A stretch of 64,000 bases of DNA from positions 1 to 64,000 of the IMG/VR virus record IMGVR_UViG_3300025122_006404. One strand, written 5' to 3'. Below the pieces are notes generated by a model that did no database searches, had not been told where the DNA came from, and was given only the letters and a program-made list of their open reading frames with translations. The stretch comes from a virus. The position numbers were made by a program, and so were the translations under genes. This document shows, piece by piece, positions 5,105 to 47,330 of this stretch. Every line of letters begins with the position of its first letter. Position 1 is the first letter of the stretch.

Positions 5105-6127
5105 ATGAAAACATATTATTCATTTGATGACATATTTTTATTTCCACGCTATTCTGATTGTACATCTCGATCTGAAATTGATTCATCCGTCACCATTGGA
5201 GATTTTAAATTAAAGGTTCCAATCATTTCATCAAATATGGATACTGTAACAGAAAGCCATATGGCATCTACCCTCTGGGAGGCAGGTGCCGTGGGAGCTC
5301 TCCATAGATTTATGGATGTTAAAGAAAATGTTTGCGAGTATGGCAGGGTCCGGGATAAAAGAGCTGACTGTTTTGTGTCTGTAGGGATTAATGAAAATAA
5401 TAAAGAAAGGTCTAGAGCTTTGTATGCAGAAGGAGCAAGGCATTTTATTATTGATGTAGCTCATGGACATTCTGAGCTTATGAAAGATCAATTGTCTTGG
5501 ATGAGAGAGGAATTTGGAGATACAATTTATATCGTGGCGGGAAATGTAGCAACTCCCGGGGGAGTCAGACATTTGCACTCGTGGGGAGCAGACTGTATAA
5601 AGGTGGGAGTTGGGGGAGGCTCTTGTTGTAAGACCCGAGTGGTGACAGGTCACGGAGTCCCTATGTTTTCTTGTCTCTTAGAGTGCTGTGAGACAGCAGA
5701 TGAAAATAACATAAAGGTCATTGCAGACGGAGGAATAAGATCCTCAGGAGATATTGTTAAATCTCTCGCCACAGGTGCCAACCTTGTTATGTTGGGAAGT
5801 TTATTAGCAGGAACCACAGAAGCTCCAGGAGAAATAACTTATACCCCAGACGGCCCGAGTAAGGATTTTAGAGGAATGGCCTCCCAATTGGCAATGGAAA
5901 ACAGATACGGCAGCACAAGAGTTAGCTTTCCCACTGCAGAAGGGGTTGCCACGAGAGTCTCGTGTAAGGGTCCTGTAAAAGATGTAATAAATCATCTCGC
6001 CCTGGGATTAAAAAGTGGGATGTCATATTGCGGAGCTCAAACCATTTCAGAAATTCCAATTAAAGCCCGATGGGGGATCCAATCATACAATGGCTTCAAA
6101 GAGGGTATCCCCCATATAATTAGATAA
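5105..6127 (+). CDS. IMP dehydrogenase / GMP reductase family (no CBS domains)
   Basis: SSNMDTVTE, DVAHGHS, GNVAT, KVGVGGGSCCKTR, IADGGI, GMAS. Confidence 0.9.
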   Translation: MKTYYSFDDIFLFPRYSDCTSRSEIDSSVTIGDFKLKVPIISSNMDTVTESHMASTLWEAGAVGALHRFMDVKENVCEYGRVRDKRADCFVSVGINENNKERSRALYAEGARHFIIDVAHGHSELMKDQLSWMREEFGDTIYIVAGNVATPGGVRHLHSWGADCIKVGVGGGSCCKTRVVTGHGVPMFSCLLECCETADENNIKVIADGGIRSSGDIVKSLATGANLVMLGSLLAGTTEAPGEITYTPDGPSKDFRGMASQLAMENRYGSTRVSFPTAEGVATRVSCKGPVKDVINHLALGLKSGMSYCGAQTISEIPIKARWGIQSYNGFKEGIPHIIR

Positions 6128-17151: not shown

Positions 17152-18762
17152 ATGGAATATTCTCAATTTTTTCCTTATTCTGAGATAAGGGAAGCTCAAA
17201 AGGATGCAATTGAGTTCTGTCTCGATGCTTTTCTTAATAAGAAAAAGAGATTTGTCATCATTGAGGCAGGAACCGGCGTGGGAAAAAGCGCAATAGGATA
17301 TACCATATCCAAGTGTCTTTATGAGAAAATGAATGCTGAAGAGCTTTATGCCCAGGGATCGTGGTATGTGACAACACAAAAAATCTTACAGGATCAGTAT
17401 GTAAGAGATTACTCTCAGCTCGGAATGAAATCTATTAAAAGTTCTTCCAATTATCAGTGTAAATTTAAAAAGAAAAATACGTGTGCCGACAGTCTCAAGG
17501 AGCTACGAGCTGAGGAAAAAGGAACTAGATTCTGGAATGCATGTATGATTAACTGTATGTATCGAAAGGAAAAAGAAAAATTTCTCGGATCGCCGGATAG
17601 TGTGACAAATTTCTCTTATCTTTTAACAGAGGCAACGTATTCTAAAAAGATAGGCCCTAGAAATCTTCTAATAATTGATGAAGCACACAATGCAGAAACG
17701 GAATTAAGCAAGTTTATTGAAATAACTGTCACCGAGAGATTTTCAAAGTCGCTACTCAAGATTTCCATTCCAGATCTTAAAACCCAATATCAGTCTCATC
17801 GATGGCTTCGAGACGTATATTATCCAAAGCTCTCCTCATATAAGAAACATGTCTCTGAGCTACTAGAAAAGCATCACGGACTTAAGTCAAAGATAGCTGA
17901 ATTCGTGTCTTTGGCTCGTCAGCTTGAGCTTTTAGACGGTCACTATGAAAAAATTAAAAGATTTTTAAGTATCTATGACAAAGAGAACTGGGTGTGTGAT
18001 ATTGTGGACAAGCACGGGAAAAAGAGTAGGAGAATTCAATTTAAACCAATTGACGTATCCCCTTATTCTGAGCAAATTCTTTTTAGACTTGGAAAAAATA
18101 TTCTTATGATGTCTGCCACAATCCTCGATAAGGAGGCATTCTGTGAATCCCTGGGAATTTCTAGAAATGAGGCAGAGTTTATCTCTCTTCTTTCACCCTT
18201 TCCTCATAAGAATCGACCAATTATTGCCGCGTCAGTGGGAAGAATGTCAGCTTCAGAAATTGATAAGACACTTCCCAAGCTTTGTGTTGCTGTTAAGGAA
18301 ATACTAAAACAACATAAAAATGAGAAAGGAATTATTCACTGTCACACCTTTAAAATTGCCAACTACCTTAAGCAAAATATTAGATCATCTAGATTGTTGG
18401 TTCATAATAGTGAAAATCGGGATAAAGTTTTAAAAGAGCACATAAGCTCTGAGAAACCGACTGTCCTTTTATCTCCTTCGATGACTGAGGGTGTGGATCT
18501 TGTGGGTGATACTAGTCGATTTCAAATCATCTGTAAGGTGCCATATCCCTATTTGGGAGATAAGCTTGTTAAGAAAAGAATGAATAAGTGGGAGTGGTGG
18601 TATCCTTTAAAGACGGCAAAAACAATTGTTCAAGCTGCAGGAAGAAGTGTGAGAAACATGGACGACTATGCTGTAACTTATATTTTAGATTCAGACTGGA
18701 GAAGATTTTATGGTAGAAATAGAAGATTTTTTTCAGATGATTTTAAAAAGTCTATTATTTAG
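17152..18762 (+). CDS. DinG/XPD-like SF2 helicase
   Basis: AGTGVGKS, LQDQY, four-Cys cluster, IDEAH, MSAT, EGVD, KVPYP, QAAGRSVR. Confidence 0.92.
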   Translation: MEYSQFFPYSEIREAQKDAIEFCLDAFLNKKKRFVIIEAGTGVGKSAIGYTISKCLYEKMNAEELYAQGSWYVTTQKILQDQYVRDYSQLGMKSIKSSSNYQCKFKKKNTCADSLKELRAEEKGTRFWNACMINCMYRKEKEKFLGSPDSVTNFSYLLTEATYSKKIGPRNLLIIDEAHNAETELSKFIEITVTERFSKSLLKISIPDLKTQYQSHRWLRDVYYPKLSSYKKHVSELLEKHHGLKSKIAEFVSLARQLELLDGHYEKIKRFLSIYDKENWVCDIVDKHGKKSRRIQFKPIDVSPYSEQILFRLGKNILMMSATILDKEAFCESLGISRNEAEFISLLSPFPHKNRPIIAASVGRMSASEIDKTLPKLCVAVKEILKQHKNEKGIIHCHTFKIANYLKQNIRSSRLLVHNSENRDKVLKEHISSEKPTVLLSPSMTEGVDLVGDTSRFQIICKVPYPYLGDKLVKKRMNKWEWWYPLKTAKTIVQAAGRSVRNMDDYAVTYILDSDWRRFYGRNRRFFSDDFKKSII

Positions 18763-26490: not shown

Positions 26491-28164
26491 ATGAATAGCA
26501 CTTATAAATTAATTGAATTTGATTCTGTAGCTAGAGAGCTCCTTCTTGAAGGAGTTAATATTCTCTCAAATGCGGTAAAAGTTACAATGGGTCCCCGGGG
26601 AAGGAACGTGATCATTGAGAACCCTGGAGACTATCCTGTTTTAACAAAAGACGGGGTAACTGTTGCCCGAGCCATCAATTTAAGAAATCAATTTTTAAAT
26701 CTAGGTGCACAGATGGTGAAGCAAGCTGCTTCCCGTACTTCTGATGTGGCTGGGGACGGCACCACCACAGCCACAGTTCTATCTCAAGCAATATTTTTAG
26801 AAGGGGTCAAGATGATAGCTGCCGGATATCCGGCAGCTGACATTAGAAAAGGAATAAATTTTGCAACGGAGAAAGCAATTAAAAATCTTAAATTACTTGC
26901 CATTCCCGTAACAGAAGATGAAGAGGTGAAACAGGTGGGAACTATCTCTGCTAATGGTGAAGAAGAGATAGGAGAGTTACTTTTAGAAGCTTTGAATGCA
27001 GTGGGACGAGACGGTGTGATAACAGTAGAAGAAGCAAAAGGGTTTAATACTTCATTAGACATAATCGAAGGTATGCAGCTTGAAAGAGGGTATCTTTCGC
27101 CTTATTTTGTTACAAATCAAGAAAGGATGACATGTGACCTTGAAAAGCCTCTAATCTTGATGTGCAGCAAAAAGCTTGATAATTTAAAGGAAGTCATGCC
27201 CATTCTTGAAAAAGTTTTAAATACACAAAGAAGCCTGCTTATTATTTCTGATGATGTCGATGGTGATGCAATGCAAGGGCTGGTTGTAAATAAAATGAGA
27301 GGCGCTCTTAGAGTTTGTGCAATTAGGTCGCCAGGCTTTGGAGAGAATCGAATTAATATGATGAAAGACGTTGCAGTCCTGACAGGATGTAAAAAAATAA
27401 TCTCAGACGCCTCAGGAGAGACACTTAGTGATATCGGGATCGAAGATCTAGGTACATGCAAGAAAGCTATTATAGGAAAGATGGGAACCTTGATCATGGG
27501 AGGCGCGGGATCGTCAGAAAACATAGCGAATAGAATTAAGGAAATTAAAGAACAATTAGAGAATGATCTTCTTGAAGAAGATGAGTCGGGTTATTTAAAG
27601 ATGAGACTCGCTAAGCTGGCCGGAGGGGTGGCAGTTTTACGTGTGGGAGGATCCACGGAGGCTGAAATGGGAGAAAGAAAGGACCGGGTGGAAGATGCTC
27701 TTAATGCAACACAGGCAGCCATTGAGGAAGGAATTGTTCCTGGAGGTGGAGTGGCTTTAGTAAGAAGTGTTAAAGACTTAAAACCTCCCAAGGATCACAA
27801 GGATGACGGATTCGGTGCCGGAGTGGATATTATAAAAAAAGCCTGCCTTTCTCCGTTGAGACAGATCGTAAGAAATTCAGGGGGCACCCCTGATGTTGTG
27901 CTTGAAAAAATTCGAAACGGAGGAGAGGAATACGGATACAATGCTCAGGAGGATTGCTACGGAGACATGTTTAAGATGGGAATAATAGATCCTCTCAAAG
28001 TGGTACGGAGCGCCCTAGAAAATGCTGCATCTTCTGCGTCAATGTTACTGACCATAGGATGTGCCATGATCGAAGAAAGAGAGTCCGAATCTTTAGACAG
28101 TGGACTTTTTAACAAAAGTCGTGGACGAAAAGAATATTTAAATATAGATGATCCCTACTCCTGA
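26491..28164 (+). CDS. groEL: chaperonin GroEL (no GGM tail)
   Basis: TMGPRGRNV, TKDGVTVA, AGDGTTTAT, GIVPGGG, GIIDPLKV. Confidence 0.97.
   Translation: MNSTYKLIEFDSVARELLLEGVNILSNAVKVTMGPRGRNVIIENPGDYPVLTKDGVTVARAINLRNQFLNLGAQMVKQAASRTSDVAGDGTTTATVLSQAIFLEGVKMIAAGYPAADIRKGINFATEKAIKNLKLLAIPVTEDEEVKQVGTISANGEEEIGELLLEALNAVGRDGVITVEEAKGFNTSLDIIEGMQLERGYLSPYFVTNQERMTCDLEKPLILMCSKKLDNLKEVMPILEKVLNTQRSLLIISDDVDGDAMQGLVVNKMRGALRVCAIRSPGFGENRINMMKDVAVLTGCKKIISDASGETLSDIGIEDLGTCKKAIIGKMGTLIMGGAGSSENIANRIKEIKEQLENDLLEEDESGYLKMRLAKLAGGVAVLRVGGSTEAEMGERKDRVEDALNATQAAIEEGIVPGGGVALVRSVKDLKPPKDHKDDGFGAGVDIIKKACLSPLRQIVRNSGGTPDVVLEKIRNGGEEYGYNAQEDCYGDMFKMGIIDPLKVVRSALENAASSASMLLTIGCAMIEERESESLDSGLFNKSRGRKEYLNIDDPYS
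28134..28140 (+). promoter_or_regulatory. class II motif ATATTTA
   Basis: 7 nt upstream of ATG 28148, inside groEL 3' end. Confidence 0.5.
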
Positions 28165-28549: not shown

Positions 28550-28831
28550 ATGTCACATGAGCTAAACGCTTTCATTAGAGAGTGCCTTATAGAGTCAAAA
28601 AAAATTAAAAGACCTCATAAAAAAACTGCACGAATTATTTGTGCATTTCCCGGTAATCTTAGACACATCCTCAATTGGCTCCAGCTTAACAAGGCTTGCA
28701 AATCAATTGGTGAAATTAAAAAGGCAGGCAATATTTATTATGTCACAGTTAGAGTTTCATCCACTTCCGGTAGACAGAAAGTTAAAGATCTCGTAAAGAG
28801 CAGATTTGGTAATATCGGGAGGGTTGAATAA
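28550..28831 (+). CDS. hypothetical protein with LxxFIRE..LIE leader
   Basis: MSHELNAFIRECLIES. Confidence 0.6.
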   Translation: MSHELNAFIRECLIESKKIKRPHKKTARIICAFPGNLRHILNWLQLNKACKSIGEIKKAGNIYYVTVRVSSTSGRQKVKDLVKSRFGNIGRVE

Positions 28832-29166
28832 TGCCAAACGGAACAACAGAAGACTGGGTAGGAAAGCTGCAAGATGCGCTAACAGAGCTAAAGATATCTT
28901 CAGTAAACGTTGAGGCCAAGTTAGATCAAATTCAAATTGCATTTCAGAAAATTGAAAGCAACATGGAGGATATGCAGTCGGCTTCTTCTGATCAGGAAAC
29001 TCGATTGCAGCTTTTAGAAGCTCACTGTGGGAGAATTCCAGATCGATTAAATGAGGATCTTGCTCTACTTAAGGCACAGGTTTCAACATATCAAAAATTT
29101 TTATGGGTAGTGACAATAGGGCTTACTGGTGTGATAATAAACATATTTTTTAGACATCTTATATAA
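28831..29166 (+). CDS. coiled-coil protein with C-terminal TM (XhlA-like topology)
   Basis: heptads followed by FLWVVTIGLTGVIINIFF. Confidence 0.6.
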   Translation: MPNGTTEDWVGKLQDALTELKISSVNVEAKLDQIQIAFQKIESNMEDMQSASSDQETRLQLLEAHCGRIPDRLNEDLALLKAQVSTYQKFLWVVTIGLTGVIINIFFRHLI

Positions 29167-29172
29167 AATTTC

Positions 29173-29201
29173 ATGTAAATACCTTTTAGATGTGGTATAA
29201 T
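29173..29201 (+). promoter_or_regulatory. class I promoter ATGTAA-N17-TATAAT (TGG extended -10)
   Basis: conserved motif heading the sigma-factor operon. Confidence 0.7.
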
Positions 29202-29223
29202 AGATACAATCTAGAGAAATACT

Positions 29224-29415
29224 TTGTTTTCTAATGATGATGTCGTCAGAATGCCCACCGAAGGTTTAATAGAGTATTCTCGGTATCTATTAAAAAAAAT
29301 TGAAAAACTTAAAAAGAAAAATTCAAATACAAAACAAGCTGAAATTGAGTTTTGCTATATTCACAGACGGATCGAAAAAAGATTGAAAAAGGTCAACGAT
29401 CCCCTTTCCCATTAG
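29224..29415 (+). CDS. hypothetical protein
   Basis: short ORF after promoter. Confidence 0.5.
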   Translation: MFSNDDVVRMPTEGLIEYSRYLLKKIEKLKKKNSNTKQAEIEFCYIHRRIEKRLKKVNDPLSH

Positions 29416-29451
29416 ACAATAGTGTCTATATTTTCATGTTAGGAAAATTTT

Positions 29452-30222
29452 ATGTCAACAACAATTGATTCTTACTTTAAAGATGTTTCTAGAACTCGTC
29501 TTCTCACTAGGGAGGAAGAGGTTCTACTTTCTCAACGGATAGAAAAAGGGGACAAAAGTGCCCGGGACATAATGATAGAATCTAATCTTAGGCTGGCAAT
29601 CAGCATTGCTAAGAAATACTCTCGTGGTGGTGGAAATCTACCCGATCTAATTCAGGAATCTAACATTGGATTAATGAAGGCGGTAGATAGATATGACTGG
29701 AGAAGAGGATTTAAATTTAGCACCTATGCCAGCTGGTGGATTAGACAGTCCGTTACTAGGCACTTGTGTACACACGGGAGCACTGTGCGAATCCCTTCAC
29801 ACACCTCGGGTTTAATTTATAAAATTTCTCGAGTTACCCGAGAATATTCTCAGGAATTTGGACAAAATCCTACATCTTCTGAACTGGCCGATTTGCTCAA
29901 TGTCTCTGAATCATTGATAAAAGTGAGCCTTGAGTCCATGACCTTAAGAAATATGCTATCGATTGACGCATCGATCAATAATGATAGTGATAATCGCAGG
30001 TTTGCCGAAGTTCTTGCTGATCCCAATTCAATTGATCCCAATAAGATTATGGATCGACAAAAAATTATGGATGCAATTTGTGAGTGTCTTGGGCAGCTTT
30101 CAGAAAGAGAAGAGAAAATTTTAAGACTTCGGTTTGGAATCGTCCAGGACCTTCTTACATTAGATGATTTAGAAATTTCTGAATCAGAAACTAACAAAAT
30201 TAAACTACAGGAGAGAAAGTAG
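29452..30222 (+). CDS. sigma70-family factor (regions 1.2, 2, 3, 4.1; region 4.2 absent)
   Basis: LLTREEE, ESNLRL, DLIQE..GLMKAV, FKFSTYASWWIRQ, LSEREEKILRLRFG, then ends without TRERVRQ helix. Confidence 0.93.
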   Translation: MSTTIDSYFKDVSRTRLLTREEEVLLSQRIEKGDKSARDIMIESNLRLAISIAKKYSRGGGNLPDLIQESNIGLMKAVDRYDWRRGFKFSTYASWWIRQSVTRHLCTHGSTVRIPSHTSGLIYKISRVTREYSQEFGQNPTSSELADLLNVSESLIKVSLESMTLRNMLSIDASINNDSDNRRFAEVLADPNSIDPNKIMDRQKIMDAICECLGQLSEREEKILRLRFGIVQDLLTLDDLEISESETNKIKLQERK

Positions 30223-30223
30223 A

Positions 30224-30517
30224 ATGGCAATGCCTAAAGGATATAAAATTGCAGGGGGATACGCGACCGTTGGAAGTGACATTGGAGGAATGGGGTATAG
30301 AGAGATTTCTGAAAAAATGACTGAGAATGGATTTAAAATGAATCACTCTACTGCTAGAAATATATTTTTGTCTGCTATGAGAAAGTTTGCAGCTGAAGTT
30401 TGTAAAATTTATAGTATCTCCCCGACTCGGGAAAATCTTGATATGATTTCAGCTGATCCTAGATTTCAATCTGGAATATTTGAAATAATGAGCCTGAATG
30501 ATAAGACTGGTGATTAA
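30224..30517 (+). CDS. HTH protein resembling sigma region 4.2
   Basis: MGYREISEKM..MNHSTARNIFLSAMRKF; AGGAG upstream. Confidence 0.7.
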   Translation: MAMPKGYKIAGGYATVGSDIGGMGYREISEKMTENGFKMNHSTARNIFLSAMRKFAAEVCKIYSISPTRENLDMISADPRFQSGIFEIMSLNDKTGD

Positions 30518-30606
30518 AAAGGCTGGAGTGAAGATCCTGATAGGGAGTGGTGGAGAAGAGTCTATATTGCAGTTATTCAAAAACCACTCATTGATCTGGA
30601 CAGCTG

Positions 30607-30897
30607 ATGAACGATTTTTTTAAAAAACTTTCTTTCACACGTCGTTATACAGAGATTCTGGAAGCTTGTGAGTGGGACGAGGAAAGGGTTAAAGCTCTGT
30701 TTTTAACCACAGTGTCTTTAGTTGAAAAACTTAAAAAGGAAGATCAGCTTGTTTCTTCTTACTCAGATTTTGAAAAACTTTTGAAGAGTAAACTAGAGGG
30801 AAACGATCGAAATGGAGAAATAAATATATTATTGGAGATATTAAAAGACGATCTTCAAAATTTAGATTTATTTGGAGAATACAAAGATGACAATTAG
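30607..30897 (+). CDS. hypothetical protein
   Basis: 96-aa ORF. Confidence 0.6.
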   Translation: MNDFFKKLSFTRRYTEILEACEWDEERVKALFLTTVSLVEKLKKEDQLVSSYSDFEKLLKSKLEGNDRNGEINILLEILKDDLQNLDLFGEYKDDN

Positions 30898-31210
30898 CTG
30901 GGATTTTTTTACAGGAAGAAGAAGGATTGACGTTAAAAAGTGGGTGACAGAAAATAATGTTACAAGCTATGAGAAGCTCGTTAGATCTTTAAAGAAGATA
31001 GATGTGGTTCCTCCGCCACCCGGACACTCAGATATTTCGAATATGGGCTTTACAGAAACTCTCCGAGACCCTTCAGAAGAAGGGAAGAGTGGTAAGCCAG
31101 GGTTGAAAAGACCCACTCAGAAAAAATCTTCTAAAAACTCTCCAAAGAGAAAAAGCACCACGAGATCGACGCCAAGTAGAGCAAGAAAAAAATCAGGGAA
31201 AAAGAAGTGA
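30887..31210 (+). CDS. hypothetical protein with Lys-rich C-terminal tail
   Basis: GGAG RBS before ATG 30887; basic tail. Confidence 0.6.
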   Translation: MTISWDFFTGRRRIDVKKWVTENNVTSYEKLVRSLKKIDVVPPPPGHSDISNMGFTETLRDPSEEGKSGKPGLKRPTQKKSSKNSPKRKSTTRSTPSRARKKSGKKK

Positions 31211-31416
31211 TATCTAATATGAGTAGATTAAGATTGGGATCTGGAGATGTTGTAGTGAACAACAGGCTAGATTCAAGAAATATAGGGGTTCTTATTGAAA
31301 AATGCGATCTCCATGAGGATTACTGGAAGGTTCTCTGTGAGGGAGATATTGTCGTGTGGTTCAATCCTAATCTTCAGCGAATCCAGGATAAGGCTAGTGA
31401 ATCCCAAAGAGCCTAA
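31207..31416 (+). CDS. small KOW/SH3-like GD family protein
   Basis: GSGDVVV..IGVLIE..WKVL. Confidence 0.6.
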   Translation: MISNMSRLRLGSGDVVVNNRLDSRNIGVLIEKCDLHEDYWKVLCEGDIVVWFNPNLQRIQDKASESQRA

Positions 31417-31648
31417 GCAATTAACTAACACTTCTTGGTATGATGAATCTGAGCAAACTGTAGTTTTTGCTGTGGATCGGGTTACAGTTGCACTAGATGT
31501 TGAAGAGTTTTTGGACTTTTATAATATGATCCAGGATACTAAAGAAGCTCTAGTCCTTGAGGCATCTTTAGAAATCGGAGCAGTTCAAGAGGACGATGAG
31601 ACTCGGTATCAATTTATTCCTACTCCCGATATTGACGACTATAACTAG
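31397..31648 (+). CDS. hypothetical protein
   Basis: GTG start in overlap junction with upstream gene. Confidence 0.55.
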   Translation: MNPKEPKQLTNTSWYDESEQTVVFAVDRVTVALDVEEFLDFYNMIQDTKEALVLEASLEIGAVQEDDETRYQFIPTPDIDDYN

Positions 31649-31656
31649 AAAGATAA

Positions 31657-32181
31657 ATGACTATTAGAAAAATACTTTTATGGCCTGACGCGGGTCTATG
31701 TAGATCATCAGCAAAAGTTTCTTCATTAGAAAAAGATGATAAAGTTTTAATTGATGATATGATAGAAACAATGCAAAGCCTGGGAGCTCTGGGAATCTCT
31801 GCTCCTCAATTTGGTATTTCAAAAAAAATATCTGTCATTGATCTTCCCAAGATTGATAAACGATTTGATGATGTTTTAGTTCTTATCAATCCATCTCTTC
31901 GAGATGGATTTGGAGAGAGAGTTTTTGAAGAAGGCTGCCTCTCGGTTCCCACTGTATGTGTTCCCACTTTAAGAGCGGAGATTGCTGTAATTGAATATGA
32001 GGATGTCGAGGGAGAAAAGCACGAATTAAACGCTACAGGTTTGCTCGCAGCAGTTGTTCAACACGAAATCGATCATCTACAGGGAGATGTTATTGTGGAA
32101 AAGCTTAGCAAGGATGATCGAAAGAAGATTATGAATCGAATGGAAAGTTTTAAAAAAGATGAAAGCTTTGTTAGTACATGA
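31657..32181 (+). CDS. def: peptide deformylase
   Basis: GISAPQFG, EGCLSVP, QHEIDH. Confidence 0.95.
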   Translation: MTIRKILLWPDAGLCRSSAKVSSLEKDDKVLIDDMIETMQSLGALGISAPQFGISKKISVIDLPKIDKRFDDVLVLINPSLRDGFGERVFEEGCLSVPTVCVPTLRAEIAVIEYEDVEGEKHELNATGLLAAVVQHEIDHLQGDVIVEKLSKDDRKKIMNRMESFKKDESFVST

Positions 32182-33388
32182 GATCCTAGAGGAGATTCGC
32201 TTAGCTCGAGGTCCAAAGTTAAAATCTAAGATTCTCTTGGAGCATAAAGAGAATGAAATTCTGCGGAGAATCTTAAGATATGCCGGAGATCCTTATTTGA
32301 CTTTTAATATTGTAAAGGTACCCTCTATTAAAAAGAGATATCCTGCTCAAGATGAGAATCTCCGATGGAACTCCTTTTTTGAAATGGCTGATCTGTGCCA
32401 GAAAAGAGAGTATACAGGAAACTATGCAATTGAAATGATACAAGGCTCGTTTTGTGTTGCTGTTGAGGAGGAAGAAAAATGGATGAGAAAGATTCTTAAA
32501 AAGCATCTTAACATTGGAGCTTCAACAAAAACTATCAATAAGGTTTTTCCGGGATTAATTCCGACTTTTGACGTCTCGCTGGCACAGAAATTTGAGGAGA
32601 AAAGAGTTGTTGAAAAGAGAGTTGCAGTTGAACCTAAGCTTGATGGAATCCGATGTTTTACGGTTGTTGAAAATGGTAATGCTTTAATGTATGCTCGTTC
32701 TGGAAAGCTTATTACAAACTTTGATAACACGATCGGAGAAGAGATATCTAAATTAGGCGACGGCTGCTATGATGGAGAGATCATGGGAAAAGATTTTATA
32801 GAGCTGATGCGCCAAGCATATCGCAAAGAGGATGTAAATACTGACGGGACGTATCTTGCTTTGTTTGACTATCTTCCCATCCGAGAGTGGAAAGAGAGGC
32901 AAGCAAAGTTAAGCTGTGAACAGCGCTATAGCATTCTTGTCAAAAGGGTTCCTAAAATATCAAAGCATCTACGAGTAGTTCAACGATTATCTACAGCATC
33001 TAGCTATCAAGAGATTAAAAAGCTACATGATAAATTTGTCTTAGAAGGGTATGAGGGTGTTATGATCAAAGATCTTGACTCTCCGTATATATTTGGACGA
33101 GGATATGAAGTTATGAAGCTTAAGGCATTTTTTGATTCTGATTGCGAAGTAGTGAGAATTGAAGAAGGAACGGGAAAGTATGGAGGGATGTGTGGCAGCA
33201 TCGTGGTTGATTTTAACAGCGTCCAGGTAGGAATAGGCAGCGGGCTGTCTGATGAACAACGTAAAGCAATCTGGGATCACCCAGAGGCCTATATTGGGCG
33301 TACCGTGGAAGTGAGATATCAGGAGATCACCCCAGACGGGAGCTTAAGATTTCCAACGTTCGTATGCTGGAGAAATGATAAAGATTAG
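32159..33388 (+). CDS. ATP-dependent DNA ligase
   Basis: EPKLDGIRC, DGEI, FD, YEGVMIK, MKLK, GSGLSD, SLRFP. Confidence 0.95.
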   Translation: MKALLVHEILEEIRLARGPKLKSKILLEHKENEILRRILRYAGDPYLTFNIVKVPSIKKRYPAQDENLRWNSFFEMADLCQKREYTGNYAIEMIQGSFCVAVEEEEKWMRKILKKHLNIGASTKTINKVFPGLIPTFDVSLAQKFEEKRVVEKRVAVEPKLDGIRCFTVVENGNALMYARSGKLITNFDNTIGEEISKLGDGCYDGEIMGKDFIELMRQAYRKEDVNTDGTYLALFDYLPIREWKERQAKLSCEQRYSILVKRVPKISKHLRVVQRLSTASSYQEIKKLHDKFVLEGYEGVMIKDLDSPYIFGRGYEVMKLKAFFDSDCEVVRIEEGTGKYGGMCGSIVVDFNSVQVGIGSGLSDEQRKAIWDHPEAYIGRTVEVRYQEITPDGSLRFPTFVCWRNDKD

Positions 33389-33963: not shown

Positions 33964-34025
33964 CTCAATGGCAGAGCTCCGCTCTTGTAAAGCGGGGGTT
34001 AAGGGTTCAAATCCCTTCGGTGGCT
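33954..34025 (+). tRNA. tRNA-Thr(TGT), no encoded CCA
   Basis: GCCACTG/CGGTGGC acceptor, CCGCT-CTTGTAA-AGCGG anticodon arm, TTCAAAT T-loop. Confidence 0.92.
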
Positions 34026-34102
34026 CCGCCCTTTATTAAAAAAATTATACTATTGTATACGATATCATTAAAATGATATAATCTATGAAGAGGATTTAAA
34101 AC

Positions 34103-37595: not shown

Positions 37596-38183
37596 TTACT
37601 GATTCAGAGTTTCTTGAATCAGTGTGTCAATCCAGGTGGAGCTAAATCCTTGTAATCTAGTGTGTAGTACCATCTCATCAGTAATAAAAAAGAAAGTCGG
37701 CCATGCTGTTAATGGCCATCCATTTGTTCCGCTTACATCAATTAAATCACGTGAGCCAGCGAGGACTGGAGAGGTAATCCCATAGGTGTCACACCAATAG
37801 GTGATATCTGCTGCAGTGGGAGGGTCTCCCGTAGAATTTTCAATTAATACAGTGATATAGGTAATTTCTTCTGCATATTGATCTTGGACTTGCTGGACTT
37901 CTGCAGCTGCACTGTTGCAAGGTCCACACCACATCGTAGAGAGATCGAGAACAATAACACCACCATAATAATCATAAAGAGAAATATCCATCAACAGCTG
38001 ATTGCTTAGGGTAAAATTACAGGGATGATCTCCAGTATTTTGTGAGCAGGATTCCCACGACGCCCAGGGATAAGGATCAGCTACGGGAGTATTGCTGGTA
38101 TCGCCAGATGTCAGACTAGGCTTGCATCCCCCGAGTCCCATTATCATTAGTAGTCCCCAGTTTATCAAATTATTTTTTAACAT
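37596..38183 (-). CDS. TlpA/redoxin-like lipoprotein
   Basis: LGG-C lipobox; DLSTMWCGPC; WPTF. Confidence 0.85.
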   Translation of the reverse strand: MLKNNLINWGLLMIMGLGGCKPSLTSGDTSNTPVADPYPWASWESCSQNTGDHPCNFTLSNQLLMDISLYDYYGGVIVLDLSTMWCGPCNSAAAEVQQVQDQYAEEITYITVLIENSTGDPPTAADITYWCDTYGITSPVLAGSRDLIDVSGTNGWPLTAWPTFFFITDEMVLHTRLQGFSSTWIDTLIQETLNQ

Positions 38184-38208
38184 CTTAATTTCTAGTGCTC
38201 CTTATTTC

Positions 38209-38964
38209 TTACCGAACTATCCCAAATACATCATCAACCCAGCCGAAAACTATTTCCTCATTCCACCCAAGTAGACCGTTATGGACGGTTAGAGTCTCAT
38301 CTACCACCACAATTGTTGGCCACGCAGAAATTGGATAACCATCTTCGGCAGTAAGATCGATAATGCTTCTATCTCCAGCCAAGACAGGGGAAGTGGTCAT
38401 GCCATACCTAGAAACCCAATCCTGAATTTCTGATGGCGTCGGCGGCGTTCCCCACGATGGTCCATCTACTAATACCGTTACCCATAAGAAATCGTAGCCT
38501 AAAGCTGTGTAGGTATCTTGATGAATCTGAGCGTCTCCGGCGATACTGTTGCAGACTCCGCACCAGATTGTAGAAAAATCGACAACCATAACAGTGCCAT
38601 AGTTGTCATAGAGTGACCAATCATTTCCATTTTGATCTTGGAATGTAAAGTCGCAAGCTTTTTCCCCGGGTTTTCCGCTACATTCAGTCCACGTAATGGG
38701 AGATGGATCTGTGTCCTCGACTGCAGAGTCACTATCACTGTCGGAAGTATCCGTGTTCGTGATATGAGTATCTTTAATGACAGAATCATCATCGACGACG
38801 GAATCATCATCGACTGTGTCTTCTTCTATGACTGTGTCGTTCGAAGTTTTATCATTTATGCCTGTTGAAGTCTCCCCAGGCGTCGCGCAGCTTATGAGAT
38901 TAGCTGTTGTGAAATTGGCCCACGCAAGTGCGGCCAAAAATATAAGTGATTTGTGTTTTAACAT
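38209..38964 (-). CDS. TlpA/redoxin-like lipoprotein with Asp/Thr-rich linker
   Basis: LIS-C; DFSTIWCGVC; WPTI. Confidence 0.85.
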   Translation of the reverse strand: MLKHKSLIFLAALAWANFTTANLISCATPGETSTGINDKTSNDTVIEEDTVDDDSVVDDDSVIKDTHITNTDTSDSDSDSAVEDTDPSPITWTECSGKPGEKACDFTFQDQNGNDWSLYDNYGTVMVVDFSTIWCGVCNSIAGDAQIHQDTYTALGYDFLWVTVLVDGPSWGTPPTPSEIQDWVSRYGMTTSPVLAGDRSIIDLTAEDGYPISAWPTIVVVDETLTVHNGLLGWNEEIVFGWVDDVFGIVR

Positions 38965-40678: not shown

Positions 40679-41284
40679 GTGATTCATCTGTTTGGAAAGA
40701 TTCCTACAAAGGTTCATGTAGCGTGCTCAGGAGGCCCGGACTCCATGGCTGTTCTTGATTTTCTTTTAAATGGTCGAAAGTCTATTACTGTAGTGCATTT
40801 TGATCATGGAACAGAGCATGCAAATGTGGCGAGACAATTTATTACTGACTATTGCAGGTTCAAAAAAATTCCCATCGTAGTGAAAGAAATTCAGAGATCA
40901 AAAAGTAAAGAGGAATCTCCCGAGGAATATTGGAGAAATGAGAGATATCGATTTTTTAGAGGGATAAGCTCTCCTATTGTTACCGGTCATAATTTAGATG
41001 ACGCTGTAGAGTGGTGGATAATGACTGCGATGCACGGACAGCCACGACTGATTCCCTACCGGCATGGAAATGTCATTAGGCCTTTTTTGCTTGCTGAAAA
41101 GTCAGAATTGCTTGAGTGGGTGGAAAGAAAAAATATTCCCTATGTGCTAGATCCTTCTAATAAGTCAGATAAATTTTCTCGCTCTATTGTAAGAGAACAT
41201 ATAATGCCACATGCACTTAAGGTAAATCCTGGAATTAGGAAAGTGGTCAAACGTCTTTTAAAAGAGAGCACTACTTCATTTTGA
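40679..41284 (+). CDS. tilS: tRNA(Ile)-lysidine synthetase, catalytic domain only
   Basis: VACSGGPDS PP-loop, RNERY, TGHNLDD, IRPFL, DPSN..R..VR. Confidence 0.88.
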   Translation: MIHLFGKIPTKVHVACSGGPDSMAVLDFLLNGRKSITVVHFDHGTEHANVARQFITDYCRFKKIPIVVKEIQRSKSKEESPEEYWRNERYRFFRGISSPIVTGHNLDDAVEWWIMTAMHGQPRLIPYRHGNVIRPFLLAEKSELLEWVERKNIPYVLDPSNKSDKFSRSIVREHIMPHALKVNPGIRKVVKRLLKESTTSF

Positions 41285-43951: not shown

Positions 43952-44028
43952 CGGCTTCTAGCTCAATCGGTCAGAGCAACGGTCTCATAAACCGTAGGTT
44001 CTGGGTTCAAGTCCCAGGGAGCCGACCA
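43952..44028 (+). tRNA. tRNA with CAT anticodon (Ile2 or elongator Met; not initiator)
   Basis: CGGCTTC/GGAGCCG acceptor, ACGGT-CTCATAA-ACCGT, ACCA end. Confidence 0.92.
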
Positions 44029-44039
44029 ATTTTTAGTGG

Positions 44040-44114
44040 GGGACCTTAGCTCATCGGGTAGAGCACTGGACTTTTAATCCAGCGGGCAGGGTTCGAGTCC
44101 CTGAGGTCCCACCA
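44040..44114 (+). tRNA. tRNA-Lys(TTT)
   Basis: GGGACCT/AGGTCCC, CTGGA-CTTTTAA-TCCAG, ACCA. Confidence 0.93.
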
Positions 44115-44128
44115 TCTTTAGAATCTAT

Positions 44129-44329
44129 TTGAGTAGGAGAAATATACAAATGGAGATAAGCTATACCATTATGGTTTATAATAAGAAAACACAGAAATAT
44201 ACAGAAATAGTTCCCTCTTTCTTAGGAAAAAGTCGAGAAGATGCTGAGCAAAGATTTAAGAGAGAGAGGAACTGGAAGCCTATTTCGAGTGATGAGGTGC
44301 TATTTGTAAAGGGTCCGGTGTGTAGATGA
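44129..44329 (+). CDS. hypothetical protein
   Basis: ORF between tRNAs; start uncertain. Confidence 0.5.
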   Translation: MSRRNIQMEISYTIMVYNKKTQKYTEIVPSFLGKSREDAEQRFKRERNWKPISSDEVLFVKGPVCR

Positions 44330-44334
44330 TATAG

Positions 44335-44417
44335 GGCCGGGTGGTGGAATCGGTAGACACGACAGACTCAAAATCTGTTACCCATTGGGTGTGAGGGTTC
44401 GAGTCCCTCTCTGGCCA
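44335..44417 (+). tRNA. tRNA-Leu(CAA), long variable arm, no encoded CCA
   Basis: GGCCGGG/TCTGGCC, ACAGA-CTCAAAA-TCTGT, TTCGAGT. Confidence 0.9.
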
Positions 44418-44449
44418 CTCTTTAACTAGACTTTTCACGAGAGTAATAA

Positions 44450-44704
44450 ATGAATGATATCTTAGCTAAAAATGTGGGAGTCCAGCTTTTAATGATGCAG
44501 GATTATAAAAAGGCGGCGAAATACTTATTCGATATGATTAAAAATAATATTCTTTGTGAGAATAAAGACATCAAGAATTATCTGATCTCTCTAATGGAGG
44601 TAATTTCATCGCATGACGATCAGTATGCTCAAGATATGGTTCTTCACTTTACGGATGTGTTAGTTCCAGAATTAAAAAAGGAGGTAAAAAGTGAAAAACA
44701 GTGA
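44450..44704 (+). CDS. hypothetical protein
   Basis: 84-aa ORF. Confidence 0.6.
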   Translation: MNDILAKNVGVQLLMMQDYKKAAKYLFDMIKNNILCENKDIKNYLISLMEVISSHDDQYAQDMVLHFTDVLVPELKKEVKSEKQ

Positions 44705-45104
44705 ATGGAGTCAGACATCTATGCTCACAACTATTGTTAATCCAACTGTGCAAGGGTATGAGATTAAGATTAAAAGTCCTGAGGTGACATTTCTAGGGGT
44801 AAAGGATCAGCCTGACTTTGCTGATTTATATCTTACTTTTTATCCGGAAGAAAAGGTGATAGAGCTTAAGTCTTTTAAAAAATATCTTCATCAATTTAGA
44901 AATAAAATTATTTCCTATGAGAGATTAATTAATGTAATCTATGATGATGTGATGAGAACATACAAGCCTAATCGATTAAGAATTGTAATGACGTGCAATC
45001 CAAGAGGCGGAATTAGTTCTCGATTGACTATCGATTCTGACTGGGAAATTCGCGGAGGAAAAGAAGCCTATCGAGACTGGACTGGCCAATCTGACGAGTG
45101 GTAA
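44691..45104 (+). CDS. QueF-family T-fold protein lacking the catalytic Cys
   Basis: PEVTFLGVKDQPDF, ELKSFKKY, FRN..SYE, PRGGI. Confidence 0.82.
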   Translation: MKNSEWSQTSMLTTIVNPTVQGYEIKIKSPEVTFLGVKDQPDFADLYLTFYPEEKVIELKSFKKYLHQFRNKIISYERLINVIYDDVMRTYKPNRLRIVMTCNPRGGISSRLTIDSDWEIRGGKEAYRDWTGQSDEW

Positions 45105-45201
45105 TGCTGCTAGGGTACAAGTAATTCAGATACTAATTAACAATGCTTTAAATGCTGAAATTGATAGGAGAATTAGATCTGTAATTTCAAGCAGGTTCAA
45201 G

Positions 45202-45423
45202 ATGGATAACAAACATCTTGAACCTTCATTTATTCACTACGATCCCGTTTGGGGAAAAGGGCAGAATGGAAACAAGTCTTTAAAATCAATAAGGGTGAAG
45301 AGGTTTAAGCAGGAAAGAGGATACGCGGTTATAGATGAAAAATATTCATCATCATTTAAAGTGATGCTTCCAGAGATTATTAAATTTTTTGAGACATGGG
45401 GAGCTACAAGAACTCGATTTTAA
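45202..45423 (+). CDS. hypothetical protein (frame open further upstream without a canonical start)
   Basis: 73-aa ORF. Confidence 0.5.
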   Translation: MDNKHLEPSFIHYDPVWGKGQNGNKSLKSIRVKRFKQERGYAVIDEKYSSSFKVMLPEIIKFFETWGATRTRF

Positions 45424-45437
45424 TAGTTGAAAATGAG

Positions 45438-45444
45438 ATATTTA
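45438..45444 (+). promoter_or_regulatory. class II motif ATATTTA
   Basis: upstream of AAGGAG and ATG 45467. Confidence 0.5.
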
Positions 45445-45466
45445 TGATTAGAATAAGGAGTTAATC

Positions 45467-45718
45467 ATGAAGTCTATTGCAATTTTCAATAGTGGGGATG
45501 AGTGGTACAGTTCGAGTGAGATAAGTCTTGTATTTTGGGAAGATGATCTGACATTTGATCAATTTACAGAGAGATATAATGATGGAGACTATTTAGATGC
45601 AGCGAGAGATGATATTGCTCGAGGCAGGGCTACGTCAGTTCAGCTGTGTGAAATAGTTAGATTTTATGAAAAATTTATTCTTGGAGTAAATAGTGTAAAC
45701 TTAAAATCTTCCAAGTAA
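45467..45718 (+). CDS. hypothetical protein
   Basis: AAGGAG RBS. Confidence 0.65.
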   Translation: MKSIAIFNSGDEWYSSSEISLVFWEDDLTFDQFTERYNDGDYLDAARDDIARGRATSVQLCEIVRFYEKFILGVNSVNLKSSK

Positions 45719-45721
45719 ATT
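45693..45721 (+). promoter_or_regulatory. class I promoter GTGTAA-N17-TAAATT
   Basis: 8 nt upstream of tRNA-Arg. Confidence 0.55.
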
Positions 45722-45729
45722 ATTACTAA

Positions 45730-45806
<77 letters not shown>

Positions 45807-45827
45807 TTCTGCAGGATACGATACAAT

Positions 45828-46043
45828 ATGATTCAAAAAATTTTATTAAAACTACTTTTTAAAACTCACGAGGTTAGACTCGGTTCACTGATGTGCGGCG
45901 ATATAGTTTTACATCAAGGGGAACTATGGAGAATTATTAATCCAATGAAGGGAGGAAAGCTTGCTGCAAAGGTGGGAGACGACCATGTTTCTGCTTGCCT
46001 TGGGGTGGGAATGTATAGGACAGTTTTAGGACTAAGATTTTAG
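45828..46043 (+). CDS. hypothetical protein (GD-type small beta protein)
   Basis: CGDIVLHQG; start moved out of tRNA. Confidence 0.55.
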   Translation: MIQKILLKLLFKTHEVRLGSLMCGDIVLHQGELWRIINPMKGGKLAAKVGDDHVSACLGVGMYRTVLGLRF

Positions 46044-46049
46044 GTTGAT

Positions 46050-46706
46050 ATGAAAGATTATTATTCAATTTTAGGTGTGGATGAAACTGCCTCAATGAGT
46101 CAAATTAAAAAGGCTTACCGTAAACTTGCTCAAAAATATCATCCAGATAAAAATCCAGGAAACTCCGAAGCAGAAGTAAAGTTTAAGGAAATAAGTGAGG
46201 CGTATGATACTTTATCCAATAAATCTAATAAGGAGAGATATGATGGCATGAGAAATGGATCAGCTTTCGGAGACGATTTTGGTTTCAATGATTTATTTGA
46301 GAGTATATTTGGGCTAGGAGATATCTTCGGGAGTGGCGGACACAGGAGGCAAACTCGTCAACCTCAACAAGAGAGAGTTATCAGATTTGATATCCCGCTG
46401 AGTGAGCTGCAATCAGAAAGAAAAATCAACAAGTCTTTTCAAGTGCAATATCAGGAAACGTGTTCATCTTGTGAAGGCTGCGGCGGCAGTGATATCCAGA
46501 AATGCCCGGCGTGTGGTGGATCGGGAAAAATTATTCAGTTTCATAAACAAGGTCCTCTGACATTTCAATCTTCGATTGCGTGCTCACACTGCCGAGGTGC
46601 GGGAAAAATTATTCACACGCCCTGTGGGCTTTGCCAAGGGGCAGGGATTATTCTTAAAACTGCAGAGTACGATGTGACAATTAGCTGTCACAAGAAAAAT
46701 AAATAA
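46050..46706 (+). CDS. dnaJ: DnaJ-like co-chaperone (J domain plus Zn finger, C-terminal domain truncated)
   Basis: HPD, G/F region, four CxxCxGxG repeats. Confidence 0.88.
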   Translation: MKDYYSILGVDETASMSQIKKAYRKLAQKYHPDKNPGNSEAEVKFKEISEAYDTLSNKSNKERYDGMRNGSAFGDDFGFNDLFESIFGLGDIFGSGGHRRQTRQPQQERVIRFDIPLSELQSERKINKSFQVQYQETCSSCEGCGGSDIQKCPACGGSGKIIQFHKQGPLTFQSSIACSHCRGAGKIIHTPCGLCQGAGIILKTAEYDVTISCHKKNK

Positions 46707-46803
46707 AGCTGTTATTTTGATATCTAAATCAGAATAGTGATTAAATACATCTGAGACAGCTAGTATATTATTATACGATAAGATCATCTAAGGAGAATAA
46801 ATT

Positions 46804-47001
46804 TTGGGATCAAAAAGTCATCGTCAAAATCAGCACGTTAATCGCTTAATGAGAAAAATTGAAAAATTTAAAAAAAAGAATTGGAATATTGAAGGTTTGC
46901 AAAAAGAATTATCTTATGCAACCGGAGAGAAGGAAAGACCTGAATTTAAAACCGGCAGAGATGCTGATCCCCGATTAAAGCGTAAATATTTTAATGATTA
47001 G
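46804..47001 (+). CDS. basic hypothetical protein
   Basis: AAGGAG RBS, TTG start. Confidence 0.6.
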   Translation: MGSKSHRQNQHVNRLMRKIEKFKKKNWNIEGLQKELSYATGEKERPEFKTGRDADPRLKRKYFND

Positions 47002-47005
47002 GAGA

Positions 47006-47081
47006 TGGGGTGTAGTTCAATTGGCAGAACGTCGGACTGTTAATCCGGAAGTTGGAGGTTCGAGTCCTCCCGCCCCAGCCA
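47006..47081 (+). tRNA. tRNA-Asn(GTT)
   Basis: TGGGGTG/CGCCCCA, TCGGA-CTGTTAA-TCCGG, GCCA. Confidence 0.93.
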
Positions 47082-47096
47082 CTAATAGAGGAAGTG

Positions 47097-47330
47097 ATGT
47101 CGCAATTTAAATTTCAAGATGGGGAGCTGGTAAAGATAAGACAATGGGATGAAGATAAAAATGATGAGAAACCAGAAAAGCCGGTAGGCGTAATAGTTTC
47201 AAAAAGTTCCACGTCGCTATATGATATATGGAATCCCGGTAGATCGGTTATTCAGAATACTTATAGAATTCTATTGAACGGATCTTTAGTTAGCAAAGAC
47301 GAAGAAGAGATTCAGAAAGTATCACCATGA
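47097..47330 (+). CDS. small KOW/SH3-like GD family protein
   Basis: FQDGELVKIR..VGVIV..YRIL. Confidence 0.65.
   Translation: MSQFKFQDGELVKIRQWDEDKNDEKPEKPVGVIVSKSSTSLYDIWNPGRSVIQNTYRILLNGSLVSKDEEEIQKVSP

Follow-up and report, generated by a model that had tools for sequence, protein, structure and literature searches.

The sigma factor of an uncultured marine phage was found to end after region 4.1 and to be followed directly by the gene of a small helix-turn-helix (HTH)-like protein. The lack of region 4.2 is a natural two-gene arrangement, conserved among the relatives of this phage. The genes are located in positions 1–64,000 of the IMG/VR virus record IMGVR_UViG_3300025122_006404, and this whole stretch of 64,000 nucleotides (nt) is referred to as the window; the record itself comprises 87,671 bases with ~38% G+C and is estimated to be 50% complete. 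The protein of 97 amino acids (aa) encoded by the open reading frame (ORF) 30224–30517 is called HTH-97 throughout. The truncated, RpoD-like sigma factor probably requires some partner acting in trans. Our preferred, though tentative, reading is that HTH-97 is a sigma-bound subunit contacting the TGTAA box of the phage promoters, to which we assign somewhat less than an even chance. Including a cysteine-rich mini protein of the relatives, which by its sequence is a clear homologue of region 4.2, there are now two candidates for a detachable -35 module. HTH-97 as the reader of the box and the mini protein as the complement of the sigma factor are not mutually exclusive.

The truncation was observed in profile searches, in the structure model and in the relatives. 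In Pfam, the sigma factor scored above cut-off with Sigma70_r1_2 (E 3.2e-11, 43.4 bits), Sigma70_r2 (E 5.3e-19, 68.2 bits, cut-off 24; a search of the phage's own genome agreed) and Sigma70_r3 (E 7e-10, 39.3 bits). A complete region 4 is absent: residues 212–232 matched only positions 1–18 of the 50 positions of the Sigma70_r4 profile, with 22.8 bits and thus below the cut-off of 24.1. Within PHROG 351, the sigma factor covers profile positions 477–698 of 928. In the AlphaFold2 model, which was based on 40 relatives and reached a mean predicted local distance difference test (pLDDT) score of 84, helices 196–214 and 218–228 correspond to region 4.1. Past residue 228, a low-confidence loop and a short helix (244–255) follow, and no HTH was predicted.

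Within the region 4.1 stub, L216, R219, E220, R225, R227, F228, and G229 are invariant among 40 family members. F228, G229 and other residues of region 4.1 were thus retained although the helices which normally pack against them are gone. The sigma factors of 65/65 distinct relatives terminate 12–40 aa past the LRFG motif with a tail of variable sequence and length. Across 96 distinct relatives, the tails comprise 6–36 aa (median 25), and 99% of them are net negative across their first 14 residues. An initial annotation of the window, made from its letters alone, had described a sigma factor with regions 1.2–3 and 4.1 and without the HTH of region 4.2, and both Pfam and AlphaFold2 agree with this description.

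The sigma and HTH-97 genes are closely linked. As read directly, the TAG stop codon of the sigma gene (30220–30222) is followed by a single base (A, 30223) and the ATG of HTH-97 (30224), and a Shine-Dalgarno sequence lies within the end of the sigma gene (Table 1). The distance of one nt and the ribosome binding site were thus given correctly in the initial annotation. A GGAG-like site also precedes the HTH-97 start in most relatives. Contigs from three other studies span the junction (29100–30539, 29925–30391, and 30112–30360) with 0 differences and no indel. In all of 80 related viral loci (L002–L081), fetched from IMG/VR on the basis of HTH-97, both genes are present as separate frames, so that the split holds in relatives as well as in independent sequence. 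The sigma gene (239–295 aa, E ≤ 8e-57) is located directly upstream of HTH-97 in 76 of these loci and one gene further upstream in the remaining four (L032, L033, L056, and L057). The intervening gene encodes ~155 aa in L032 (2515–2979) and L056 (2510–2980), each preceded by a 257-aa sigma factor, and a similar frame of 160/168 aa was seen upstream of HTH-97 in L033 and L057. In the divergent clade B (e.g., L143, 1122–1334), a 70-aa ORF lies between sigma and HTH-97, with a product that by eye appears hydrophobic and coiled-coil-like.

Where the two genes adjoin, 64 distinct junctions were compared: the genes overlap in 25, are 0–5 nt apart in another 25 and 7–38 nt apart in 14, and each of the three frame relations and of the three stop codons is represented. 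Fused sigma-HTH-97 proteins were searched for in three ways. None was found among longer proteins in a single-protein search (35 candidates). The same result was obtained with a 119-row alignment (8000 candidates scored) and in the top 150 sigma representatives, where the best E was 0.021, both being weak evidence by the searches' own caution.

In the reciprocal direction, the best 80 of 572 confirmed IMG/VR loci were fetched with the sigma alignment. Of these sigma factors, 69 are truncated, and 67 of the 69 precede HTH-97, which starts at -13 to +39 nt or, where a small gene intervenes, at 185–706 nt. A normal region 4.2 is present in the other 11 sigma factors, which are of full length, and HTH-97 accompanies none of them (0/11). 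A co-occurring and co-transcribed gene pair, by which two-subunit sigma factors are recognized, was therefore found in 80/80 loci and for 67/69 truncated sigma factors; as the loci are related by descent and not phylogenetically independent, these counts may stem from one ancient event. No terminator-like site was found on the + strand in 28800–31700, and one promoter is located upstream of the sigma operon. The two truncated sigma factors without HTH-97 nearby belong to L140 and L150. They represent a different phage sigma of 228 aa (L140, 2474–3160), which stops two residues after the region 4.1 motif, and the 75-aa ORF that follows looks unrelated.

The promoters of the phage, termed class I, combine a canonical -10 element with a novel -35 box, as had been proposed in the initial annotation. 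The pattern TGTAAA-N14-18-TAWAAT occurs at 9 sites in the window, compared to 0.32 expected, and none of 100 shuffled sequences reached 9. The record as a whole contains 12 TGTAA-type sites, mostly on the + strand and 7–30 nt ahead of gene starts, including those of the helicase (17152), the PP-loop protein (40679), a methyltransferase (54836), and ORF 29224. The latter is the gene ahead of sigma, and the class I copy that heads this operon, also noted initially and found at 29174–29201, ends 23 nt before it. An A at 29173 extends the box to ATGTAA, which is separated from TATAAT by a 17-nt spacer ending in TGG and hence occupies the canonical -35 position. Most class I sites additionally carry the TG of an extended -10 element (TGnTATAAT). 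The canonical combination TTGACA-N16-18-TATAAT was not enriched in 28800–31700 (9 vs. 8.4 expected).

The same promoter type was found in the relatives. In 71 distinct related loci, 46 sites were counted as compared to 6–25 in 20 shuffles. Most of the 46 lie shortly before the sigma operon, where many loci show the form [AG]TGTAA-N17-19-TATAAT. The complete, 293-kb relative G001 contains 12 sites of the form TGTAAAAA...TGGTATAAT. Beyond the end of the window, a promoter of the form GTGTAA-N17-TGGTATAAT (G000, 65273–65306) lies 27 nt before the small ORF 65333. A further element, TATTTAT, was seen in G001 (L261–L275) 23–41 nt upstream of several very large genes (667–2350 aa), for example before those at 132759, 168636, 183880, and 192370. 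This k-mer is ~5-fold enriched in the upstream regions of G001 and is a candidate for a second, perhaps late, promoter element apart from the TGTAA/TATAAT class.

HTH-97 belongs to a sizeable family of conserved small proteins. A search for proteins of similar length (53–170 aa) yielded 147 protein clusters at E ≤ 0.01, and the 120 listed clusters span 63–102 aa. At the start of the protein, 30 diverse members share M1, M3, P4, and G6 without exception; of these residues, M3, P4, and G6 are also invariant across 119 members, with M1 nearly so. The AlphaFold2 model, based on 119 relatives (mean pLDDT 79), is disordered at residues 1–18 (pLDDT < 50) and shows helices at 25–34, 41–62, 69–76, and 79–93, the first two of which are connected by a predicted turn of six residues. 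The most conserved block, K38–N46, is polar and reaches from this turn into the beginning of the second HTH helix; G36, K38, M39, N40, H41, S42, T43, A44, R45, and N46 are invariant or nearly so in the 119 members. Such a polar conserved block is the pattern expected for a base-reading helix, and the modelled HTH-97 looks like a DNA reader.

The joint modelling suggested in the initial annotation was carried out for HTH-97 and sigma residues 150–256. The predicted complex scored 0.41, compared to 0.01 for the best control, which is a weak pass: in the calibration of the tool, the pass mark was reached by 58/80 solved complexes and 2/110 mismatched pairs, and passes at 0.60 or under comprise 7/80 solved complexes and both passing mismatches. 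The runs agreed in at least 55% of the contacts, and the pLDDT of the partner was at least 61. The N-terminus of HTH-97 was net positive in 95% of 64 scorable cases. Covariation between sigma and HTH-97 (100 distinct pairs, effective sequence number 76) was dominated by clade-specific columns without enrichment at the sigma C-terminus and was uninformative.

The binding steps, the assignment of a box to each protein and the order of events in the following model are what we infer from these data. The RpoD-like sigma factor keeps regions 2 and 3, which read the -10 element, together with the helices of region 4.1, and would be completed in trans. HTH-97, encoded on the sigma transcript with a start codon that overlaps the end of the sigma gene or lies next to it, would dock on the C-terminal stub of the sigma factor. 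Its basic N-terminus could lie against the acidic sigma tail, its three-helix HTH core could pack on the helices of region 4.1, and the docked protein would make contact with the TG(T/C)AA box at -35 of class I promoters. Class I promoters, including that of the sigma operon, might first be fired at a basal level by the host holoenzyme, which appears possible because they carry an extended -10 element. The phage sigma/HTH-97 pair would then reinforce them. The mini protein would probably be a second module, alternative or additional, for the same sigma stub.

Several observations weigh against HTH-97 as the reader of the -35 box. Regarding its sequence, Sigma70_r4_2 matched 2/119 members at E 0.16, and hhalign gave a probability of 2.5% for the comparison with 44 full-length RpoD-like sigma factors. 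The protein of the window had no Pfam match to Sigma70_r4 or r4_2 or to an HTH family and no match in PHROG, and a search of the PDB sequences with the HTH-97 profile returned chance-level rows and no sigma factor. Regarding its structure, neither PDB nor BFVD yielded a Foldseek match at E ≤ 0.001; the best BFVD row was an uncharacterized 72-aa phage protein (E 0.013). The best Z score in an exhaustive structural alignment was 4.5, which is weak, as values of Z < 8 may reflect a common arrangement only. The recurring fold matches, which in themselves speak for a DNA reader, were HTH domains of the LuxR/GerE/NarL type (Z 3.3–3.7, root-mean-square deviation (rmsd) 1.8–2.8, 46–49 residues); the matched ranges cover the C-terminal part only of each domain, and no sigma chain was listed. 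An Atlas search for a link to region 4.2 gave no more than one lead, a viral 71-aa cluster at rank 22 (score 0.87) with Sigma70_r4 on 19% of its members. The truncated sigma factors of L140 and L150, which lack HTH-97 nearby, also belong here. Furthermore, the sigma gene is part of a wider conserved gene block (Table 1), so its adjacency to HTH-97 is less specific than it appears.

The promoters provide further points of this kind. By eye, the box of G001 is mostly 19 nt from the -10 element, as opposed to 17 nt in the window, and the mini genes of some relatives are preceded by TGTAAAT-N17-TATCAT. Clade B, with 3 TGTAA sites in 109 kb, none above chance, showed a GTGCAA variant at 19 sites vs. 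7–16 in shuffles, which is marginal. Finally, as a TGTAA promoter drives the sigma operon itself, this promoter cannot rely on the products of the operon alone.

The remaining counterevidence comes from a third gene. Searching five long relatives (G001–G005; L163–L167) with Pfam Sigma70_r4 revealed a separate small ORF in 5/5 of them, with 31–40 bits (above cut-off) and a match mostly to profile positions 16–50. The encoded mini protein has 83–108 aa with four invariant cysteines followed by an HTH of the region 4.2 type. Compared to full-length sigma factors by hhalign, it reached a probability of 97.6% (E 3.4e-12); the 35 aligned columns coincide exactly with region 4.2 and are 46% identical. 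In PHROG 351, the mini protein occupies positions 693–727, abutting the 477–698 of the sigma factor. HTH-97 and the mini protein are unrelated (hhalign probability 0.2%). The initial annotation had assigned region 4.2 to the gene following sigma and had regarded its 97-aa product as a match to the missing HTH. The HTH-like fold and the invariant polar start of the recognition helix remain of this assignment; homology was not found, the six-residue turn and the above profile results speak against a match, and the recognizable homologue of region 4.2 is the other small gene, known from the long relatives.

It is conceivable that the sigma factor is in fact completed by the mini protein, which would then read the -35 box, with HTH-97 as an accessory, for example an assembly or stabilizing partner of the 4.1 stub or a regulator. 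We consider this explanation rather unlikely overall, albeit the best of the alternatives. Besides the homology, the distribution of the gene argues for it: it was detected in 4/4 records of at least 90% completeness that bear the sigma/HTH-97 pair (G001, G002, G015, and, more weakly, G016), as well as in G003, G004, G005, and G012 (75–82% complete). Conversely, 4/4 records with the mini gene and a completeness of 59–99% hold HTH-97, and one 38% fragment does not; 250 loci of the mini gene were confirmed in IMG/VR. The gene was not found in G011, G013, G014, and G017 (67–87% complete), in five closer relatives of the phage (37–52% complete), all of them fragments, or in its own 87.7-kb, ~50% complete record. 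Where present in the long relatives, it is located 100–180 kb from the sigma operon and is thus uncoupled from it. With its own four-cysteine N-terminal part, the mini protein may need no partner or may target the host polymerase instead, and the strict coupling and strong conservation of HTH-97 would be left unexplained. In L163, the gene beside the mini gene, on the opposite strand, encodes a product with a glycine-rich, by eye FtsZ/tubulin-like N-terminus.

A variant that unites both candidates, with the sigma factor as a hub whose 4.1 stub docks either HTH-97 or the mini protein as exchangeable -35 readers, is improbable in our estimation. If true, promoter classes could be switched during infection by swapping a module of ~10 kDa instead of a whole sigma factor, and the four cysteines might let one module sense the metal or redox state.

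An explanation without any reader, to which we give about one chance in five, is that the sigma factor alone serves extended -10 promoters requiring no -35 contact, and that HTH-97 acts independently of it, as a DNA-binding regulator or in some other function, and has only the operon in common with it. E. coli sigma70 deprived of region 4.2 is able to start transcription at promoters with an extended -10 element. Many intergenic regions of the phage contain TGnTATAAT without a TGTAA box (e.g., before ORFs 3139, 41329, and 58624), and the class I promoters bear the TG extension likewise; the sigma factors of L140 and L150 and the broad syntenic block point in the same direction. This explanation is at odds with the near-perfect pairing of HTH-97 with truncated but not with full-length sigma factors, even if the cases are not phylogenetically independent, and with the prevalence of overlapping or nearly touching junctions. 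In addition, the 4.1 stub is invariant, and the complex prediction passed, if weakly. The last explanation, a single fused protein hidden by a sequencing or assembly frameshift or produced by readthrough or recoding, is suggested by two ORFs in different frames one base apart and has a negligible probability given the indel-free contigs from three other studies, the varied distances, frame relations and stop codons of the junctions, the genes inserted between sigma and HTH-97 in some relatives, the conserved HTH-97 start and the fruitless searches for a fused form, and it was rejected. With these alternatives weighed, HTH-97 as the sigma-bound subunit is still the reading that we prefer.

The features of the sigma operon and its surroundings are compiled in Table 1.

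Table 1. Features of the sigma operon in the window, with positions, strand and basis of the assignment
Feature	Position	Strand	Remarks
Class I promoter	29174..29201	+	TGTAAA box, TATAAT at 29196-29201; pattern match
63-aa ORF heading the operon	29224..29415	+	No Pfam/PHROG family; upstream homologues in 71/80 loci L002-L081 (jackhmmer)
RpoD-like sigma factor, ending after region 4.1	29452..30222	+	256 aa; Pfam, PHROG, AlphaFold2, relatives
Region 4.1 stub	30037..30135	+	Helices 196-214 and 218-228; ends LRLRFG; AlphaFold2
Acidic C-terminal tail, in place of region 4.2	30136..30219	+	pLDDT 56-72
Shine-Dalgarno sequence AGGAG of the 97-aa ORF	30209..30213	+	Within the end of the sigma gene; read directly
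HTH-97, HTH-like partner protein	30224..30517	+	97 aa; basic conserved N-terminus to GYAT motif
Predicted HTH of HTH-97, residues 25-62	30296..30409	+	AlphaFold2
96-aa ORF, downstream neighbour	30607..30897	+	No Pfam/PHROG family; same place in 53/80 loci L002-L081
112-aa ORF with long basic Lys/Ser-rich tail	30872..31210	+	No Pfam/PHROG family; downstream in 70/80 loci L002-L081

Neither the locus nor HTH-97 had a match among 50,697 phage records (blastn and tblastn), in which the best match of the sigma factor showed 43% identity, and no HTH-97 relatives were found in 185,579 prokaryote species represented by one genome each. Other phage genes matched in Pfam encode a replicase of the DNA polymerase III alpha type, an enzyme of the IMPDH/GMP-reductase family, a helicase, two AhpC/TSA-family proteins, a PP-loop ATPase, and a DnaJ protein with a zinc-finger domain (jointly at 60–2534, 5105–6127, 17152–18762, 37596–38964, 40679–41284, and 46050–46706). 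A GroEL-like chaperonin (26491–28164), a peptide deformylase (31657–32181), and a DNA ligase (32159–33388) were read by eye. Candidate tRNA genes are located in the intergenic regions ~34000–34100 and 44000–47100, where T-arm-like GGTTCGA(A/G)TCC motifs occur in the sequence upstream of genes. Pol III alpha has been tied to one group of marine jumbo phages, according to the available part of PMC9123017.

Sigma factors made of two proteins have precedents. The available part of a recent preprint (bioRxiv 10.64898/2026.10.01.756105) lists SPO1 gp33/gp34, T4 gp55/gp33, SigO-RsoA, and Tn916 Sig7-Sig8; SPO1 gp33/gp34 and Tn916 Sig7-Sig8 thereby extend the two precedents named in the initial annotation. 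The same portion of the preprint describes that Tn916 Sig7-Sig8 drives its own promoter in a positive loop. As in B. subtilis SigO-RsoA (YvrI-YvrHa) and Tn916 Sig7-Sig8, two small proteins from adjacent genes would share promoter recognition, and both are needed there as far as the available accounts describe. Those sigma factors are group-4-like and divided between region 2 and region 4, whereas the phage sigma is group-1/2-like, comprises regions 1.2–4.1 and is cut inside domain 4. Unlike in these systems, homology to the missing piece was seen not in the neighbouring gene of the phage but in a third gene of the relatives.

The arrangement also resembles the late transcription system of phage T4 (gp55 and gp33, with the gp45 clamp), in which a sigma factor without a -35-reading domain is combined with a small, separate protein of HTH fold. 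T4 gp33 is not known to read DNA and requires the sliding clamp. T4 gp55 is a minimal, region-2-like protein; here, by contrast, the sigma factor is nearly of full length and a conserved box is present at -35. HTH-97 had no fold or sequence match to gp33 in PHROG or among the matches listed by Foldseek and the structural aligner. T4 gp33 takes the place of domain 4 on the beta flap, as stated in the available parts of PMC7824862 and 10.1101/2024.09.12.612765. The former also describes minimal and RpoD-like sigma factors and gp33 in jumbo phages, and the portion of the latter at hand mentions a split sigma factor in Francisella as speculation only.

In bioRxiv 10.64898/2026.10.01.756105, SPO1 gp34 with gp33 is counted among the early cases of phage sigma factors made of two proteins. 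According to the available part of PMC13401047, SPO1 Gp33 is not a sigma subunit and inhibits the host sigma-A holoenzyme by bridging beta, beta' and region 4 of sigma-A. If so, a small protein tied to a phage sigma factor need not be its missing half. In the sigma appropriation of T4 by AsiA and MotA, region 4 is withdrawn from the -35 element, a new box near -30/-35 is read by a separate DNA-binding protein of the phage instead, and recognition of the -10 element is kept. AsiA is also treated in PMC7824862. T4 thus remodels the host sigma70, whereas the phage described here encodes a sigma factor built without region 4.2. With regard to fold, the matches of HTH-97 that recur are weak ones to four-helix HTH domains of the LuxR/GerE/NarL type, a fold class shared with sigma domain 4. 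The best recurring matches were RcsB (5o8y), DosR (1zlk), GerE (1fse), and NarL (1je8) with an rmsd of 1.8–2.5 over 46–49 residues. In contrast to these domains, HTH-97 has a longer turn and a 22-residue recognition helix, Z scores were only 3.4–3.7, and no sequence-family match was found.

In the literature searched, within the portions of the texts that were available, no description of a sigma factor cut inside domain 4 or of the sigma factor of related phages was found. If confirmed, the system would represent a natural modular -35 recognition, useful for understanding the timing of phage genes, and a compact, orthogonal transcription switch of two or three parts for synthetic biology. With defined promoters and small proteins that look soluble, the question is amenable to in vitro work. 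Domain 4 of sigma factors is usually treated as a single unit responsible both for the hold on the beta flap and for recognition of the -35 box. These two jobs appear to be separated in a very large clade of uncultured phages from the sea and from lakes, with 147 HTH-97 clusters and 250 mini-protein loci in IMG/VR on contigs of up to 340 kb: the flap-side helices remain on the sigma factor, and the DNA-reading helices, if supplied at all, would come from small separate proteins.

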